A DNA stretch of 5,579 nucleotides, from positions 1 through 5,579 of IMG/VR virus record IMGVR_UViG_3300045988_013358. One strand, given 5' to 3'. Origin of the DNA: a virus. Under the pieces are notes generated by a model, which was not told the DNA's origin, did not search any database, and saw only the letters and a list, made by a program, of their open reading frames with translations. The translations under genes and the position numbers were made by a program. Within the stretch, counting starts at the first letter, position 1. Every line of letters begins with the position of its first letter. Shown here piece by piece: positions 1 through 5,579 of the stretch.

Positions 1-89
1 ACACAATCTGCAAAAAATTGAAAGAGTACGAAAGGATTGACAAGGATGATTAAAAGCTATATCATGGACACAGACGCAAACAAAAAAAT
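1..89. repeat. Terminal direct repeat, copy 1. It is identical to 5491..5579 and marks the closure overlap of a circular 5490-nt genome.
   Basis: Base-by-base comparison shows acacaatctgcaaaaaattgaaagagtacgaaaggattgacaaggatgattaaaagctatatcatggacacagacgcaaacaaaaaaat at both ends of the window. Confidence 0.95.
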
Positions 90-438
90 AGGACAATACT
101 TTAAAGTGCGAGAATTCGCGTGCCGAGATGGTTCACAGGTAGTTTTCGTGGACGACTATCTCGTAACTATTTTAGACCTTCTAAGAAGCAAAATCAGAAA
201 ACCAGTAATCGTCACAAGCGGATACAGAACTCCAACATGGAACAAAAAATGCGAAGGAGCAAAATACAGCTATCACATGCGCGGCATGGCTGCAGACATC
301 CGAGTTGATGGGATGAGTCCAAAAGAACTCGCCAACAAACTGAATGCAATCATCCCGGAAGAATGCGGCATTATCGTATACAATGGCTGGATACACTTTG
401 ATGTGCGAGCCGGAAAAAAATACAGAAAGGGGGTGTAA
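46..438 (+). CDS. Peptidase M15 / LAS-family zinc peptidase (D-Ala-D-Ala carboxypeptidase-like, Peptidase_M15_3-like); putative endolysin.
   Basis: The ORF track gives 37..438 from TTG; I prefer ATG 46 (MIKSY...), which has GAAAGGA at 30..36. Motifs: SGYR (217..228), H-x6-D in YHMRGMAAD (His 274..276, Asp 295..297), and WIHFD (His 394..396, Asp 400..402), the typical zinc-ligand set of LAS/M15 enzymes. There is no N-terminal signal peptide or TM segment. Confidence 0.8.
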   Translation: MIKSYIMDTDANKKIGQYFKVREFACRDGSQVVFVDDYLVTILDLLRSKIRKPVIVTSGYRTPTWNKKCEGAKYSYHMRGMAADIRVDGMSPKELANKLNAIIPEECGIIVYNGWIHFDVRAGKKYRKGV

Positions 439-588: not shown

Positions 589-705
589 ATGGCATTAATC
601 AAAGTCAAGGACGTTAAGGAAGCAATTGCGCTGATGATGAATATCCTCGAAAAGCTTGACGAAATTTACCACGCACTGAAGGATGCAAACAAAGACAAAG
701 AGTAA
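589..705 (+). CDS. Hypothetical small protein, 38 aa, predicted amphipathic helix.
   Basis: ATG 589 follows the best SD in the genome (AAAGGAGGTGA, 574..584). Translation: MALIKVKDVKEAIALMMNILEKLDEIYHALKDANKDKE; stop TAA 703..705. It fills the gap between flanking genes. I recognise no family. Confidence 0.5.
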   Translation: MALIKVKDVKEAIALMMNILEKLDEIYHALKDANKDKE

Positions 706-1401: not shown

Positions 1402-1426
1402 GAACCATTTCGCGCAAGTGCCGAGA

Positions 1427-3043
1427 ATGGAACGACCACGAAGCAAGTTTGACCGAAGTCACCAGCTGTTGACGACCATCAACGAAGGTGATTTGGTGCC
1501 CATCTACTGTGATGAAGTACTTCCGGGTGATACCGCGCGAGTACGGCTTAACGGGCTTATCCGTATGAGTACTCCCATCTATCCTATCATGGATAACTGC
1601 TACATGGATACCTATTTCTTCTTTGTTCCGTGCAGACTGCTCTGGGAACACTGGGAGAACATGTTCGGCGAGAACGACACCGATTATTGGGCAGAAAAGA
1701 CCGAATACAGCACGCCGTGGTGTCAAGTCGGCGGCACAAGCGGTCTAGCCAATGGCAGTATTGGAGACTACTTCGGACTGCCGACCGGAGTAAAAAAATC
1801 AATAAAAGTGAACGCGCTGCCGGCACGCGCCTACGCAATGATTTATAACGAGTGGTTCAGGGATGAAAACCTCGAAGCACCATTAATGCTCGGCTATAAA
1901 AAAAGCGATGGTGGAGGAAGCAACACAAACCCGGAAGCAACAAAGACAAGCGCCAACCACCCAAACAACACAACGGACACCAACGAAGCAAACCTCTACG
2001 CAAAAAAACCGGCAAAAGCGGGCAAGTTCCACGACTACTTCACCAGCTGCTTGCCGAAGCCGCTGAAAGCTGACCCGGTGGAAATCGGCCTGACAGGCAA
2101 TGCACCAGTAAAACTGTATAACAATGCAGAGTTAACAACTCAAACAGCAGCATCAACACAGCTAGAGTTAACTAAAAACGGCAGTATGCAGAACTTTTCA
2201 AACGTGATGGGAGTAACCGGACAAGATAAAGGCCAAATTGAAATGAAATTCATGGGCACAGACCTAAGCGGAGTGAACGCAATCAGCATTGCAGACTTGC
2301 GCATGGCAATTGCCTTGCAACACATCTTTGAGGCTGATGCACGCAACGGCACGAGATACCGTGAATTCCTGTCTGGTACGTGGGGCGTGACAAGTCCGGA
2401 CAGCCGTCTGCAGATTCCTGAATACATCGGCGGGCAGCGCATCGCAATCAATGTCAATCAGGTTGTCCAGACAAGCCAGACGGACCCGACAACCGGACAG
2501 GCACTAGGCAATACGGCAGCATACAGCCTGACCACATGCAGCAAGCAGATGGTGGACTATGCAGCAACGGAATACGGCTATATCATCGGCCTGGCAGTGG
2601 TACGAGTAGAGCACAGCTACCAGCAAGGCCTTGCGACCAAATGGACGCGCGGCGGGCGGTTCACCTACTACGACCCGCGACTGGCAGCACTGGGCGAACA
2701 GCCGGTATACAACCGCGAAATCTATGCACAAGGCACACCTGAAGACGAAGAAATCTTCGGCTATCAGGAGGCTTGGGCGGACTACCGCTACAAGCCTTCT
2801 TACGTAACCGGAGAAATGCGGTCTAACTACCAGACAAGTTTGGACGCATGGCATTATGCAGACGATTATGACAAGCTTCCGCGACTCTCGGCAGAGTGGA
2901 TTCAGGAAGGAACACAGAACATTGACCGAACAATTGCAGTGACGAGCGCAAAAAGTCATCAGTTCTTGTGTGACTTCTATTTCACAGAAGACTGGTACCG
3001 CGAGATGCCTATCTACAGCATCCCGGGCATCGAAAGAATTTAA
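1427..3043 (+). CDS. VP1: Major capsid protein VP1 (Microviridae F-protein family).
   Basis: The N-terminus RSKFDRSHQLLTTINEGDLVPIYCDEVLPGDT is the hallmark start of microvirus major capsid proteins. The length (about 540 aa) fits gokushovirus VP1. The start is ambiguous: ATG 1427 (chosen) or in-frame GTG 1418 (ORF track), and neither has a strong SD. Stop is TAA 3041..3043. Confidence 0.92.
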   Translation: MERPRSKFDRSHQLLTTINEGDLVPIYCDEVLPGDTARVRLNGLIRMSTPIYPIMDNCYMDTYFFFVPCRLLWEHWENMFGENDTDYWAEKTEYSTPWCQVGGTSGLANGSIGDYFGLPTGVKKSIKVNALPARAYAMIYNEWFRDENLEAPLMLGYKKSDGGGSNTNPEATKTSANHPNNTTDTNEANLYAKKPAKAGKFHDYFTSCLPKPLKADPVEIGLTGNAPVKLYNNAELTTQTAASTQLELTKNGSMQNFSNVMGVTGQDKGQIEMKFMGTDLSGVNAISIADLRMAIALQHIFEADARNGTRYREFLSGTWGVTSPDSRLQIPEYIGGQRIAINVNQVVQTSQTDPTTGQALGNTAAYSLTTCSKQMVDYAATEYGYIIGLAVVRVEHSYQQGLATKWTRGGRFTYYDPRLAALGEQPVYNREIYAQGTPEDEEIFGYQEAWADYRYKPSYVTGEMRSNYQTSLDAWHYADDYDKLPRLSAEWIQEGTQNIDRTIAVTSAKSHQFLCDFYFTEDWYREMPIYSIPGIERI

Positions 3044-3053
3044 GGAAGGAGGA

Positions 3054-3079
3054 AGCCCCGCAAAAGCGGGGCTATTTTT
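3054..3079 (+). terminator. Rho-independent terminator/attenuator between VP1 and VP2.
   Basis: An 8-bp GC-rich stem, AGCCCCGC (3054..3061) with GCGGGGCT (3066..3073), has an AAAA loop and is followed by ATTTTT (3074..3079). Confidence 0.8.
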
Positions 3080-3081
3080 GA

Positions 3082-3939
3082 ATGGAAACGTTATTAAAGC
3101 TTTTGCCATCCCTCATGCAAGGACTGAGCATGCTAACAGGCATCATAACAAGCAGTAACCAGAGCGGCGCCAAGAACAGCCAAGGAGCCGGCAGCGAAAG
3201 CAGCACCGGCAGCGAGACCACGACCGGCAGCGTAACAGGACCACAGCAGATAGGTGCAACACAAATCAGCACGCCAACAGGCGTAACAACGTTCGGGAAT
3301 CAGAGCAGCGTAAACACCGCAAACGCACTGCAAATGATGAGCGGACTGCTGAGCAACCTCGCGAATGCTGGAAGCCAAGCGAGCGCCAAGAAGTACAACA
3401 GCGCAGAAGCAGCAGCAGAACGAGCATTCCAAAAGGAAATGCGCGGGACAGCCTATCAGGATACCGTGAAAGACATGATTGCAGCAGGCATCAATCCTAT
3501 TCTGGCAGCGACCAACGGCGCAACAAGCGCACCATCGGGAGCATCTGCAAGCATTGGAAGCCAACATTATAACCAGCAGAGCGCACAAGCTGCAAGCGTA
3601 TCCGCAATGTACGAATACGGCAACAATACAGCAGAGCTGGCAGACAGATACTTACAGCTAGCAAAACAGGCCACCAGCGCAAAACAATTCAAGAGTGCGA
3701 AAAGCTGGGAACAGGCAGCGAGCGAGCTGGCAACCTCAAGCGCAAAACAGGCGCAACAGTACACCTATGCAGCTAGCAAGTTAGGTGCAGGCCTTGCGGG
3801 AGCTGGTAAAGCAGCCAAAGACGCAGTAAAAGAGGCTGGTAAAGCAGCCAAAGACACAGCAGGAAACTTCAAAAAGTACAACCAAAGAGTGCCAATCATG
3901 CCAAACATGGACACATTCAACGCATACAGAGGAGACTAA
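3082..3939 (+). CDS. VP2: Minor capsid / DNA pilot protein VP2.
   Basis: It lies downstream of VP1. It has a Gly/Ser/Thr/Ala/Gln-rich low-complexity composition. The motif AERAFQKEMRGTAYQDTVKDMIAAGINPILA matches the conserved motif of gokushovirus VP2 (...TAYQR...DM..AGLNP.LA). Confidence 0.85.
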   Translation: METLLKLLPSLMQGLSMLTGIITSSNQSGAKNSQGAGSESSTGSETTTGSVTGPQQIGATQISTPTGVTTFGNQSSVNTANALQMMSGLLSNLANAGSQASAKKYNSAEAAAERAFQKEMRGTAYQDTVKDMIAAGINPILAATNGATSAPSGASASIGSQHYNQQSAQAASVSAMYEYGNNTAELADRYLQLAKQATSAKQFKSAKSWEQAASELATSSAKQAQQYTYAASKLGAGLAGAGKAAKDAVKEAGKAAKDTAGNFKKYNQRVPIMPNMDTFNAYRGD

Positions 3940-3945
3940 GAAAGG

Positions 3946-3975
3946 AAGGGGGATGGTAAAACATCCCCCTTTTTT
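3946..3975 (+). terminator. Strong rho-independent terminator ending the structural operon.
   Basis: A 10-bp stem, AAGGGGGATG (3946..3955) with CATCCCCCTT (3962..3971), has a GTAAAA loop. A T6 run occupies 3970..3975, 7 nt after the VP2 stop. Confidence 0.9.
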
Positions 3976-4002
3976 AGTAACAATAATCCAAAAAATAGAG
4001 AT

Positions 4003-4026
4003 TGTGGAAAACTTGAGTTTTCAACA
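4003..4026 (+). promoter_or_regulatory. Hairpin whose stem contains a consensus DnaA box (TTTTCCACA on the - strand); candidate single-strand initiation / complementary-strand origin element.
   Basis: TGTGGAAAAC (4003..4012) and GTTTTCAACA (4017..4026) form a 10-bp inverted repeat with one G/A mismatch and a TTGA loop. The reverse complement of 4003..4011 is TTTTCCACA, which fits the DnaA box TTWTNCACA. The function is inferred, not demonstrated. Confidence 0.4.
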
Positions 4027-4191
4027 CTTTCAACAGGTTTTCAACAACAAGTTGCACAAAGAAATTCGTCATAATGACGAACATTCAACAATTCAACAAG
4101 TTTTCAACAAAGTTTTCAACAGGCAAAAAGACAATAAATAAACGTAGAAACGTTAAAAAAATAAAAAAACGAGTTTTCAACAGTTTCAACA
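4017..4191 (+). repeat. Array of nine same-orientation TTCAACA repeats (five extended to GTTTTCAACA) in three clusters; iteron-like protein-binding sites.
   Basis: TTCAACA starts at 4020, 4029, 4040 | 4084, 4092, 4103, 4115 | 4176, 4185. Full GTTTTCAACA copies are at 4017, 4037, 4100, 4112 and 4173. Spacings of 8-12 nt are not multiples of 3, which argues for a DNA-level rather than a coding repeat. Confidence 0.85.
4065..4081. repeat. Perfect palindrome TTCGTCAT-A-ATGACGAA between repeat clusters 1 and 2.
   Basis: The 8-nt arms at 4065..4072 and 4074..4081 are exact reverse complements. Each arm contains TGACGAA (TGNCGAA) read outward on its strand. Confidence 0.8.
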
Positions 4192-4243: not shown

Positions 4244-4278
4244 ACCGGCACAAGATAGACAAGGAAGCTTGTGCCGGT
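4244..4278 (+). promoter_or_regulatory. Perfect 11-bp stem-loop overlapping the rep translation-initiation region; translational control element and/or origin hairpin.
   Basis: ACCGGCACAAG (4244..4254) pairs with CTTGTGCCGGT (4268..4278). The 13-nt loop ATAGACAAGGAAG contains the only SD-like sequence for rep (AAGGAAG, 4261..4267). Candidate GTG start 4271 lies in the 3' arm, and ATG 4286 is 7 nt downstream of the stem. Confidence 0.6.
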
Positions 4279-4285
4279 AACAAAA

Positions 4286-5275
4286 ATGCCATGTACAAAA
4301 CCATTAGTATTTCAGATGGACACGAAAAAACCACAACTGTGGGGAAGTCTGGAGAACCTATCAAAGCAAGGACTGCAAGCGGACATCATGGACGGAATAA
4401 AAAAAGGAAAGTTCGCGTTGTTACCATGCGGTAAGTGCGAGTACTGCCGAAAACAGATGGCTGACCAATGGGCAACCAGAATAGAGCTAGAAGCCAAAGA
4501 GTGGGACGATGTGATTTTTCTGACACTAACTTATGATGATGAGCACATACCTTATGGTGAAATCGTCAAAGGATACCAAAGCATCCAAAGCCAGACGGTA
4601 AGCAAACGAGACGTGCAGCTATTTCTGAAACGGCTACGAAAAGCATACAAAAAACCGATAAAGTATTTCCTAGCAGCTGAATATGGTGACAGAACAAAAA
4701 GACCACACTATCACGCAATAGTGTTCGGACTGAAACCACCAGATGCACAATGGTATAAAAACCAAAAAGGCAACAGCTATTTCAAAAGCGAGTGGCTGCA
4801 AAAAATCTGGGGCAAAGGCATGATAGACTTTTCACCAGCACAGCCAGGCAGCTTTGCATACGTAGCGCAATACGTCAACAAAAAAGCCATAGGCGCAGAG
4901 CAAGCGGCAAAATACTGGATGGAAGGCAGAGAACCTGAATTTAGAATCATGTCGAAAGGTATCGGAGAAAAGTATCTAAACGAACACAAAGATGAAATCT
5001 TAAAAACAGATAACATCATATGCGCAGGAGGACGCGAGAAAAGGCCTCCACGCTATTTTGATAAGATTCTAGATAAGGATACCAACAAAGACACAGAAAG
5101 CTATTTTAGGGCACATTCTGACGAGCTGAGAGAGGTAAGAGCCAGACGCAGACGCAGTGCAGTACAAAGTTTGGTCAATCTCGAACAAAGCACGAGCGTA
5201 GATTATGAAACCTATCTAAACATTCAGAAAGAAAAGGACAAGCTAAAGCAAAAGTGGCGTGAACCGAAAACATGA
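4286..5275 (+). CDS. VP4: Replication initiation protein VP4 (HUH rolling-circle endonuclease, phiX174 protein A family).
   Basis: RCR motif 1 is FLTLTY (4517..4534). Motif 2 is HYH in PHYHAIVFG (4706..4714). Motif 3 is YVAQYVNKK with two catalytic Tyr (4859..4861 and 4871..4873), almost identical to phiX174 A YVAKYVNKK. There is a Cys-rich PCGKCEYCR element. ATG 4286 gives MPCTKPL..., matching the M-x-C-x-x-P N-terminus I recall for gokushovirus Reps. GTG 4271 (ORF track) is an in-frame alternative with better SD spacing. Confidence 0.9.
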   Translation: MPCTKPLVFQMDTKKPQLWGSLENLSKQGLQADIMDGIKKGKFALLPCGKCEYCRKQMADQWATRIELEAKEWDDVIFLTLTYDDEHIPYGEIVKGYQSIQSQTVSKRDVQLFLKRLRKAYKKPIKYFLAAEYGDRTKRPHYHAIVFGLKPPDAQWYKNQKGNSYFKSEWLQKIWGKGMIDFSPAQPGSFAYVAQYVNKKAIGAEQAAKYWMEGREPEFRIMSKGIGEKYLNEHKDEILKTDNIICAGGREKRPPRYFDKILDKDTNKDTESYFRAHSDELREVRARRRRSAVQSLVNLEQSTSVDYETYLNIQKEKDKLKQKWREPKT

Positions 5276-5487: not shown

Positions 5488-5530
5488 CAAACACAATCTG
5501 CAAAAAATTGAAAGAGTACGAAAGGATTGA
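5471..5530 (+). CDS. Possible 19-aa upstream/leader ORF spanning the circular junction (equivalent to 5471..5490 plus 1..40).
   Basis: SD GAGAGGTGA at 5457..5465 and ATG at 5471. Translation: MENTMDKHNLQKIERVRKD. Stop TGA 5528..5530 (38..40 in copy 1) lies 5 nt before the peptidase ATG and overlaps its SD region. It is too short to call coding from sequence alone. Confidence 0.3.
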   Translation: MENTMDKHNLQKIERVRKD

Positions 5531-5535
5531 CAAGG

Positions 5536-5579
5536 ATGATTAAAAGCTATATCATGGACACAGACGCAAACAAAAAAAT
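5536..5579 (+). CDS. Duplicate 5' end of the peptidase gene, truncated by the window edge. This is an artefact of the terminal redundancy, not a second gene.
   Basis: Positions 5536..5579 are identical to 46..89. Confidence 0.85.
   Translation, partial: MIKSYIMDTDANKK

Follow-up and report, generated by a model that had tools for sequence, protein, structure and literature searches.

A conserved, predicted M15-type peptidase in a gokushovirus without a recognisable holin or export signal: a probable endolysin related to those of Clostridia phages

The stretch of DNA analysed here (the window; 5,579 nt) carries an 89-nt terminal direct repeat and represents a circular genome with a unit length of 5,490 nt. 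Every recognisable gene, as determined from the ORF list and from Pfam and PHROG searches, lies on the + strand, in the following layout:

46-438, + strand: peptidase, recognised by Pfam and PHROG
441-557, + strand: ORF B, a basic protein of 38 aa (pI 12) that matches phrog_10695
589-705, + strand: ORF C, an acidic helical protein of 38 aa with no transmembrane stretch
717-971, + strand: VP5, recognised by profile searches
958-1401, + strand: VP3 scaffold, recognised by profile searches
1418-3043, + strand: VP1 capsid (Phage_F, E 4e-149)
3082-3939, + strand: VP2 pilot protein (pilot-protein PHROGs)
3091-3147, + strand: hydrophobic helix at the N-terminus of VP2, LLKLLPSLMQGLSMLTGII, with a 19-residue Kyte-Doolittle (KD) mean of 1.44
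Between VP2 and VP4: a repeat-rich non-coding stretch
4271-5275, + strand: VP4 replication protein, recognised by profile searches
5536-5579, + strand: the peptidase gene's first 44 nt once more, as part of the 89-nt terminal repeat

With VP1, VP2, VP3, VP4 and VP5 all recognised, the genome is that of a gokushovirus-type microvirus; an earlier, sequence-only reading of this DNA had likewise taken it for a microvirus. The peptidase gene occupies 393 of the 5,490 nt of the unit genome (7.2%; that reading gave 7%) and is an intact ORF that ends with the stop codon TAA at 436-438, encoding a protein of 130 aa (14.9 kDa, pI 9.5). The gene had been placed at 37-438, and an intact ORF is indeed present there; the listed start codon, TTG 37, is probably not used, and ATG 46 is the likelier start. 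This assignment rests on a Shine-Dalgarno-like site upstream of ATG 46 and on the N-terminus MIKSYIM, which is conserved in 32 aligned relatives. An in-frame stop at nt 19 means that no N-terminal extension of the peptidase is possible. Two sequence signals surround the start codon:

30-36, + strand: Shine-Dalgarno-like GAAAGGA, 9 nt 5' of ATG 46, with GGAGG at the equivalent spot in relatives
37-65, + strand: sigma-70-like promoter match TTGACA-17-TATCAT (11/12), straddling the peptidase start codon

Promoter-like boxes occur at the equivalent position in relatives (TTGAC[AG] in 41/74, TATCAT in 47/74), and the match would presumably serve as a promoter.

The product matched the Pfam family PF08291, Peptidase_M15_3 (71.6 bits, cut-off 23.2; E 7e-20), from peptidase residue 18 onwards and across profile positions 2-108 of 108, and it also matched phrog_894, annotated as 'endolysin' (E 3e-39). 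The profile search that had been proposed as a check therefore returned a full-length match above the gathering cut-off. Three motifs make up the zinc-peptidase signature:

aa 58-61, nt 217-228, + strand: SGYR, which aligns with GGFR of the D-Ala-D-Ala carboxypeptidase structure 1LBU and includes R61, by family the substrate-binding Arg of the S-x-x-R motif
aa 77-84, nt 274-297, + strand: H-x6-D, HMRGMAAD (H77, D84), predicted zinc ligands 1 and 2
aa 117-119, nt 394-402, + strand: H-x-D, HFD (H117, D119), predicted third zinc ligand and neighbouring acidic residue, with both roles assigned from the family

This SGYR / H-x6-D / H-x-D signature, already noted from the letters, is complete, and residues S58, R61, H77, D84, H117 and D119 are invariant in 51 aligned sequences spanning 94% down to 40% identity. 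When the sequence profile was compared with solved structures, 1LBU scored best (E 3e-7, across the SGYR and H-x6-D region; 28-29% identity over the core), with SGYR...SYHMRGMAADI of the peptidase aligning directly with GGFR...SRHMYGHAADL. A first AlphaFold model, made from a shallow alignment, had a pLDDT of 64 and produced Foldseek matches that were mostly noise, and it was remade with a more diverse alignment. The second model reached a mean pLDDT of 70, with 65-91 in the core and values below 50 in the N-terminal 35 residues. At this mean pLDDT of 70, Foldseek against the PDB matched 1LBU with probability 1.00 (TMq 0.58, rmsd 3.2 over 96 columns), and further matches were the Hedgehog N-domain (TMq 0.55), VanY, LysECD7, LdcB, MepA, ChiX and the T5 endolysin, the top matches having the LAS fold throughout. 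Among the predicted viral structures of BFVD, the model matched phage proteins named 'Peptidase' or 'Peptidase M15A' at TMq 0.81-0.86, including several marine microvirus peptidases. The PF08291 match, the complete signature and the LAS-fold matches all bear out the identification as an M15/LAS zinc peptidase, and the protein is predicted to be an M15A-type enzyme in the MEROPS classification, with a LAS (lysostaphin / D-Ala-D-Ala peptidase / sonic hedgehog) fold. Two narrower assignments were rejected. The score against the MepK family (NCBIfam NF053624) was 39.5 bits, compared with an equivalog cut-off of 185, which makes MepK a relative rather than an equivalent; and membership in VanX/VanY (M15B, M15D) was dismissed, as there was no Pfam VanY match at E <= 0.01. 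VanY sequences from the PDB reached E 0.05-0.08 against the peptidase, and the resemblance to VanY, judged from the model, is confined to the level of the fold.

Of 81 related genomes, almost all retain an intact peptidase ORF of ~130 aa, and a comparison with 41 relatives indicated purifying selection (median pN/pS 0.26, dN/dS ~0.17). At least 500 contigs in IMG/VR encode a relative; the best 80 are 72-80% identical and reside mostly on contigs of 4.2-6.3 kb. These data bear on the suspicion that the gene might be an artefact, either a product of chimeric assembly or a functionless passenger in decay, which could be raised by its GC content of 42.5%, as compared with 51-52% in the structural genes. 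However, VP4 has a GC content as low as that of the peptidase gene, the contig is circular, and the dN/dS ratio and the invariant catalytic residues speak against decay. Independent assemblies of several samples, one of them a human-gut metagenome from the Qin 2012 series, also recovered the identical genome and gene order, and the gene order recurs in the IMG/VR contigs, 80 of which were inspected. We give the artefact reading practically no weight; IMG/VR recurrence, selection and the independent assemblies exclude it.

We found no signal peptide or SAR domain in the peptidase, the highest 19-residue KD mean in its first 35 residues being 0.005, in line with the hydrophilic, signal-free N-terminus described previously; the N-terminus is hydrophilic and conserved in the relatives, too. 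Membrane proteins were searched for in the stop-free stretches of all + frames of the circularised genome, with a 19-residue KD mean of >= 1.6 as the threshold for a transmembrane segment. None of the three + frames of the 5,490-nt circular genome contained such a segment, and neither did the + strand of 73/81 related loci scanned. A holin, in the sense of a small phage membrane protein, was not found in any + frame, nor was an overprinted membrane ORF resembling phiX174 E found on the + strand, so that the sequence-only reading was right that the coding strand carries no holin-like or E-like membrane ORF. Its wider statement, that no + strand segment is transmembrane-like, stands at KD >= 1.6 but overlooked the VP2 N-terminus (KD 1.44). 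The absence of + strand transmembrane segments is real, yet it is what the base composition leads one to expect: since the + strand contains only 16.6% T, the result is statistically unsurprising, and 95% of shuffled genomes of equal composition lacked a + strand segment at KD >= 1.6 as well.

Several hydrophobic or closely placed ORFs were examined as candidates and rejected. A hydrophobic peptide in an alternative frame over VP1 (LLHGYLFLLCS..., ~1597-1848) has a stop directly upstream, and its first start codon comes after the hydrophobic core; it recurs in relatives with a downstream stop that varies from 24 to 92 codons, and is a by-product of the conserved VP1 motif YFFFVP. The other alternative frame over this motif is likewise not a membrane ORF, having no start ahead of the hydrophobic residues and stops that vary, and no local drop in VP1 synonymous diversity was seen in the window's own clade. 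Hydrophobic ORFs on the minus strand (e.g., 961-1446 and 3133-3588) are a composition effect, because the complement of a T-poor + strand is T-rich: there are 36 minus-strand hydrophobic segments in the window and 16-51 in every related genome, and the known genes are all on the + strand. ORF C, considered as a peptidase-specific partner, is acidic and is present in six related, peptidase-less genomes, which marks it as a gene of the lineage rather than a lysis partner. A fusion of ORF C to the peptidase was also discarded, the read-through 'GVKMAL...' merely reflecting that the frame of the next gene is open for a few codons. Finally, an ORF of 19-43 aa directly 5' of the peptidase gene (5399/5471-5530) recurs in few of the 81 related loci (1 to 14 with a match).

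A separate observation was made in peptidase-less microviruses. In one peptidase-bearing relative (L027), a hydrophobic ORF of 49 aa is overprinted on the start of VP1, and using it as bait retrieved ~45 gut microviruses without the peptidase, with ~33% T and contigs of ~5.0 kb. In this T-rich group the same frame runs for 104 codons without a stop, a length that is conserved; its codon 8 is an ATG, and it includes three stretches of strong hydrophobicity (KD ~3). The third-position diversity of VP1 in the group is 0.157 inside the overlap, compared with 0.278 in the rest of the gene (p 6e-9, Mann-Whitney), and is lowest at codons 30-60; no such drop occurs in the window's own clade (0.288 vs 0.322, p 0.10). 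VP1 is the sole GenBank annotation over the overprinted region, and a literature search returned no description of an overprinted VP1 membrane ORF. From its sequence, the ORF is a possible E-like or holin-like gene in gokushoviruses that lack the peptidase.

No segment in any + frame of the genome is more hydrophobic than the N-terminus of VP2, LLKLLPSLMQGLSMLTGII, which is weakly transmembrane-like and conserved in relatives. The pilot protein H of phiX174 inserts into membranes through an N-terminal helix that is rich in glycine and similarly weak. The VP2 helix is the only candidate in this genome for a membrane-active element.

Homologues of the peptidase outside the microviruses point to Clostridia. 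The best 80 matches in bacterial genomes, taking one genome per species, were 36-48% identical and came almost all from Clostridia, mainly from Faecalibacterium, Acutalibacteraceae, Eubacteriales and Oscillospiraceae. At 61/79 of the bacterial loci, there is, no more than 1.2 kb from the peptidase gene, a small ORF on the same strand that has one to three transmembrane stretches and in many cases abuts the gene; this fraction is an upper estimate, as the scan was crude and also counted spurious ORFs. Cultured tailed phages of Faecalibacterium encode an 'endolysin' that is 41-42% identical (41% for the FP_oengus protein), and in FP_oengus a holin is found two genes downstream of it. The annotation of the FP_oengus protein near a holin, together with the membrane ORFs at the 61/79 loci, argues for an endolysin role of the homologues. 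A set of contigs of 5.3-5.5 kb, whose peptidases share at least 80% identity with the FP_oengus endolysin, was considered as possible microviruses and set aside, since the one that we checked was a fragment of a tailed phage. Because the microviral peptidases form a tight group far from the bacterial and tailed-phage homologues, they would fit a single ancient acquisition, after which the gene was inherited and now and then recombined among microviruses. Shine-Dalgarno sites are strong ahead of most genes of the window, which fits a Firmicutes host slightly better than a Bacteroidota host. Going by the affinity of the gene and by the ribosome-binding sites, the host would be found among the Clostridia (Oscillospirales). 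The Clostridia affinity of the gene agrees with Roux et al. 2012 (PMC3394797).

We consider it rather probable that the peptidase is an endolysin acquired from phages of Clostridia, with the holin left behind. It would be made in the cytoplasm as a soluble zinc enzyme that cleaves the peptides of peptidoglycan. The donor would have been a tailed phage or prophage of Clostridia (Oscillospirales, e.g., Faecalibacterium and Acutalibacteraceae), from whose lysis cassette an ancestor of the present human-gut gokushovirus clade took up the gene; the adjacent holin would have stayed behind at the transfer, and the gene would have been kept under purifying selection since. [quoted passage not shown] A cytoplasmic endolysin with neither a holin nor a signal is harmless in the model systems studied. 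Because the peptidase lacks an export signal and no classical membrane protein is encoded in the genome, the wall must be reached with the help of another late factor that breaches the membrane, which could be a lysis function also used by gokushoviruses that lack the peptidase, or the N-terminal helix of the abundant pilot protein VP2, which may insert into the membrane. ORFs B and C are also present in related T-poor gokushoviruses that have no peptidase and, in most cases, no membrane ORF either, so lysis in the lineage cannot depend on the peptidase alone; judging by gene content, the lineage must have a peptidase-independent way to compromise the envelope. The peptidase could plausibly be an accessory that completes or speeds wall breakdown, which would suit a thick-walled host. 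In this scheme we infer the muralytic activity of the peptidase, the timing of its action, its host and its route past the membrane.

The same enzyme might instead serve entry, with a peptidase carried by the virion opening a local hole in a thick, Gram-positive-type wall for DNA delivery by the pilot protein, and release being achieved by other means. Action from the outside would remove the topological problem posed by the missing holin, and M15A domains do occur inside large phage proteins resembling tail or baseplate lysins (a 'cell wall hydrolase' of 1,191 aa and Gp5 OB-fold fusions of 510-646 aa). However, the closest homologues of the peptidase are stand-alone proteins of ~137 aa encoded beside holins and are not structural; the catalytic domain fills the 130 residues, with no capsid-docking or fusion domain; and a T=1 capsid that packs 5.5 kb of ssDNA, VP2 and a basic DNA-binding protein leaves little room for it. 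The wall hydrolase Gp7 of the Rhodobacter microvirus Ebor is found in virions, but merely in trace amounts (PMC11980548). We regard an entry role as decidedly unlikely.

Lysis from inside the cell was also considered, in which the cytoplasmic enzyme would destroy a soluble wall precursor (free D-Ala-D-Ala, or the D-Ala-D-Ala terminus of UDP-MurNAc-pentapeptide) in the manner of VanX/VanY-type enzymes. Wall synthesis would then fail and growing cells would burst, as with phiX174 E, Qbeta A2 and phage M LysM. This would account for the missing signal peptide and holin without any extra component, and among the small phages examined to date, targeting of precursors is the rule. The nearest structure by both sequence and fold is the D-Ala-D-Ala carboxypeptidase 1LBU, followed by VanY, and NCBI names one relative 'D-Ala-D-Ala carboxypeptidase family metallohydrolase'. 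Against this, the homologues at 40-48% identity reside in holin-endolysin cassettes, which argues for the assembled wall as the substrate; the match to the profile of MepK, a periplasmic murein endopeptidase, likewise points to polymeric substrates; and the similarity to VanY stays at the fold level, as seen from the missing Pfam match. We know of no enzyme of the M15 D-Ala-D-Ala kind that acts as a lysis protein. We judge this reading, an attack on the precursor followed by the bursting of growing cells, to be very improbable.

In a broader form, the clade would lyse its host by an endolysin that needs neither a holin nor an export signal, either because the enzyme acts on precursors inside the cell or because VP2 breaches the membrane; we hold this to be unlikely. 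If true, the precursor version would provide the first enzymatic single-gene lysis protein, and in the VP2 version the DNA-pilot protein would double as the membrane-breaching factor. Going by the affinity of the gene, the host would belong to the Clostridia and be of Gram-positive type; from this group, to our knowledge, no microvirus has yet been isolated. Gokushoviruses are among the most abundant ssDNA phages of the human gut, and an abundant clade that keeps a cytoplasmic endolysin under selection without a membrane protein implies either a non-classical mode of release or a target that can be reached from the cytoplasm. The puzzle of release without a holin thus concerns a large clade rather than the window alone, and a single cloned gene would suffice to test it; the affinity to Clostridia also supplies a concrete shortlist of hosts for resurrection of a synthetic virus.

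The presence of such a peptidase in gokushoviruses is already known: it has been published and deposited, and its interpretation dates from 2012. The identical 130-aa protein is found in UniRef/NR as 'Peptidase, Microviridae sp. ctJkV4', and GenBank KX513876 ('Human gut gokushovirus'), with 88% nucleotide identity over 94% of the genome, is annotated with a 'peptidase M15'. The peptidase, labelled 'similar to peptidase' (e.g., MG945xxx), is also encoded by about twenty more GenBank microviruses from the faeces of pigs, humans, monkeys and lemurs. Later work has treated microvirus peptidases as recurrent accessory lysis genes (PMC9239249; PMC7062461). The statement in the sequence-only reading that cultured microviruses lyse without an endolysin is outdated, as cultured Roseobacter microviruses encode M15 metallopeptidases (PMC11499846), cultured Rhizobium microvirus isolates carry an endolysin gene (PMC9512667), and purified Gp7 of Ebor (mBio 2025) degrades peptidoglycan in zymogram and plate assays (PMC11980548). 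Our literature search returned no paper that resolves how a gokushovirus peptidase reaches the murein.

Among enzymes of known structure, 1LBU, the zinc D-Ala-D-Ala carboxypeptidase of Streptomyces albus G and the type enzyme of MEROPS M15A, has the fold and the zinc-binding signature in common with the microviral peptidase, but it is secreted, is longer (213 aa) and has an extra N-terminal wall-binding domain. With phiX174, the window shares the situation of a small ssDNA phage that needs lysis with very little coding space; there, however, E is a membrane protein that is overprinted on gene D and inhibits MraY, whereas the window encodes an enzyme and has no overprinted hydrophobic ORF. By its description, Ebor Gp7 resembles the peptidase in being an accessory wall hydrolase of a microvirus (~146 aa). 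Ebor differs in belonging to the subfamily 'Tainavirinae', in its alphaproteobacterial host and in encoding a predicted membrane protein of 45 aa, Gp1 (PMC11980548), of which the window genome has no counterpart.

The endolysins of the Faecalibacterium phages FP_oengus, FP_Toutatis and Lelie, together with genes of Oscillospirales prophages, are 36-48% identical to the microviral peptidase over the full length, and these proteins resemble it in being single-domain (~137 aa), in their motifs and in the absence of a signal peptide. They differ in their surroundings, since the genes of the tailed phages and prophages adjoin small holins or holin-like membrane proteins and the microvirus has none. 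The closest precedent is provided by the M15_3 peptidases that Roux et al. 2012 (PLoS One 7:e40418, PMC3394797) described in human-associated Microviridae, with 11 genes among 81 genomes, a count that agrees with the statement of the sequence-only reading that such ORFs occur in a minority of metagenomic Microviridae. These authors showed that the genes had been acquired horizontally, four gokushovirus genes grouping in one clade with those of Faecalibacterium and Anaerofustis; they also pointed out that the prophage homologues adjoin holins, and proposed an endolysin role. Their peptidases, from Gokushovirinae and Alpavirinae of the human gut, belong to the same family and to the same kind of virus and habitat, and were given the same interpretation, with no substantive difference from the case described here; what the present analysis adds is an explicit, negative search for membrane ORFs, an estimate of selection and a check of the fold.

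The coding (+) strand of the window is unusually poor in T (16.6%, versus about 33% in other gut microviruses analysed) and rich in A (36%), a composition that leaves almost no room for hydrophobic overprinted ORFs. Its genome is divided into two GC modules, one comprising VP4 (the replication protein), the peptidase and the small ORF C, at 39-43% GC, and the other comprising ORF B, VP5, VP3, VP1 and VP2, at 51-56%. The GenBank relatives KT264784 and KX513864 match the window at about 80% identity, the former over the VP4 part only and the latter over the VP1-VP2 part only. The two GC modules, together with these partial matches to different relatives, suggest modular recombination.

Hydrophobic ORFs were detected in other microviruses, at the following positions:

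L027 (a peptidase-bearing relative), 111-260 (+): 49-aa ORF, TTG start, overlying a divergent VP1 N-terminal segment (+1 frame)
L165 (KT264799; a peptidase-less relative), 3972-4046 (+): 24-aa ORF, ATG start, MVDVIQSIAIMLLSIAVIINAKRR; 19-residue Kyte-Doolittle mean (KD19) 2.42
L202 (an example from L202-L248), nt 4-316 of VP1: overprinted ORF, +1 frame relative to VP1

The L027 product has a strong transmembrane-like stretch and a basic tail, so that in L027 the peptidase may coexist with a membrane ORF. The 24-aa ORF, a single example, sits in the accessory stretch that separates VP4 from ORF C, which is the site of the peptidase in the window's clade.

Recovered with the L027 ORF as bait, L202-L248 are gut microviruses that lack the peptidase and are rich in T (about 33%). 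They lie on IMG/VR contigs of about 5.0 kb, and in them a conserved 104-codon open frame overlies the first ~105 codons of VP1 in the +1 frame. Its ATG is codon 8, and the product of about 96 aa has three stretches of strong hydrophobicity (KD19 about 3). Synonymous diversity of VP1 in this group is lowered in the overlap (0.157 inside it versus 0.278; p = 6e-9), and no comparable drop was seen over the corresponding region in the window's clade. GenBank annotates VP1 alone over the overprinted region, with no second ORF. The overprinted ORF is a candidate lysis gene of E-like or holin-like type.

Within the window, putative signals and small ORFs were mapped as follows:

37-65 (+), second copy 5527-5555: promoter-like TTGACA-17-TATCAT (11/12), spanning the peptidase start codon
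441-557 (+): ORF B, 38 aa, unannotated; phrog_10695
589-705 (+): ORF C, 38 aa, unannotated
3054-3073 (+): GC-rich hairpin directly 3' of VP1, AGCCCCGC-AAAA-GCGGGGCT, then ATTTTTG
3946-3971 (+): GC-rich hairpin directly 3' of VP2, AAGGGGGATG-GTAAAA-CATCCCCCTT, then TTTTAG
4002-4191: repeat-bearing non-coding stretch upstream of VP4

Because the promoter-like site straddles the peptidase start codon, its transcripts would lack that codon. In 41/74 relatives TTGAC[AG] occurs in the spacer that separates the peptidase ATG from its ribosome-binding site, even though this spacer is non-coding, and the promoter-like site may set peptidase expression below that of the downstream genes. Both hairpins are followed by a T run on the + strand and look like intrinsic terminators. 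The stretch upstream of VP4 holds five copies of (A/G)(A/G)GTTTTCAACA, shorter TTCAACA units and one inverted copy, and is 81-89% identical to H45 and H46, microviruses that are diverged elsewhere; the stretch may contain iterons, or an origin region, used by the VP4 replication protein.

ORF B and ORF C lie downstream of the peptidase in varying order and are unbroken in nearly all 81 related genomes; six peptidase-less relatives also carry both, and in GenBank they mostly go unannotated. ORF C is predicted to form an acidic amphipathic helix in which ILEKLDEIYHAL is nearly invariant. ORF B is basic (pI 12), ends in RGGIRL and matches phrog_10695, and is probably a J/VP8-like DNA-binding protein.
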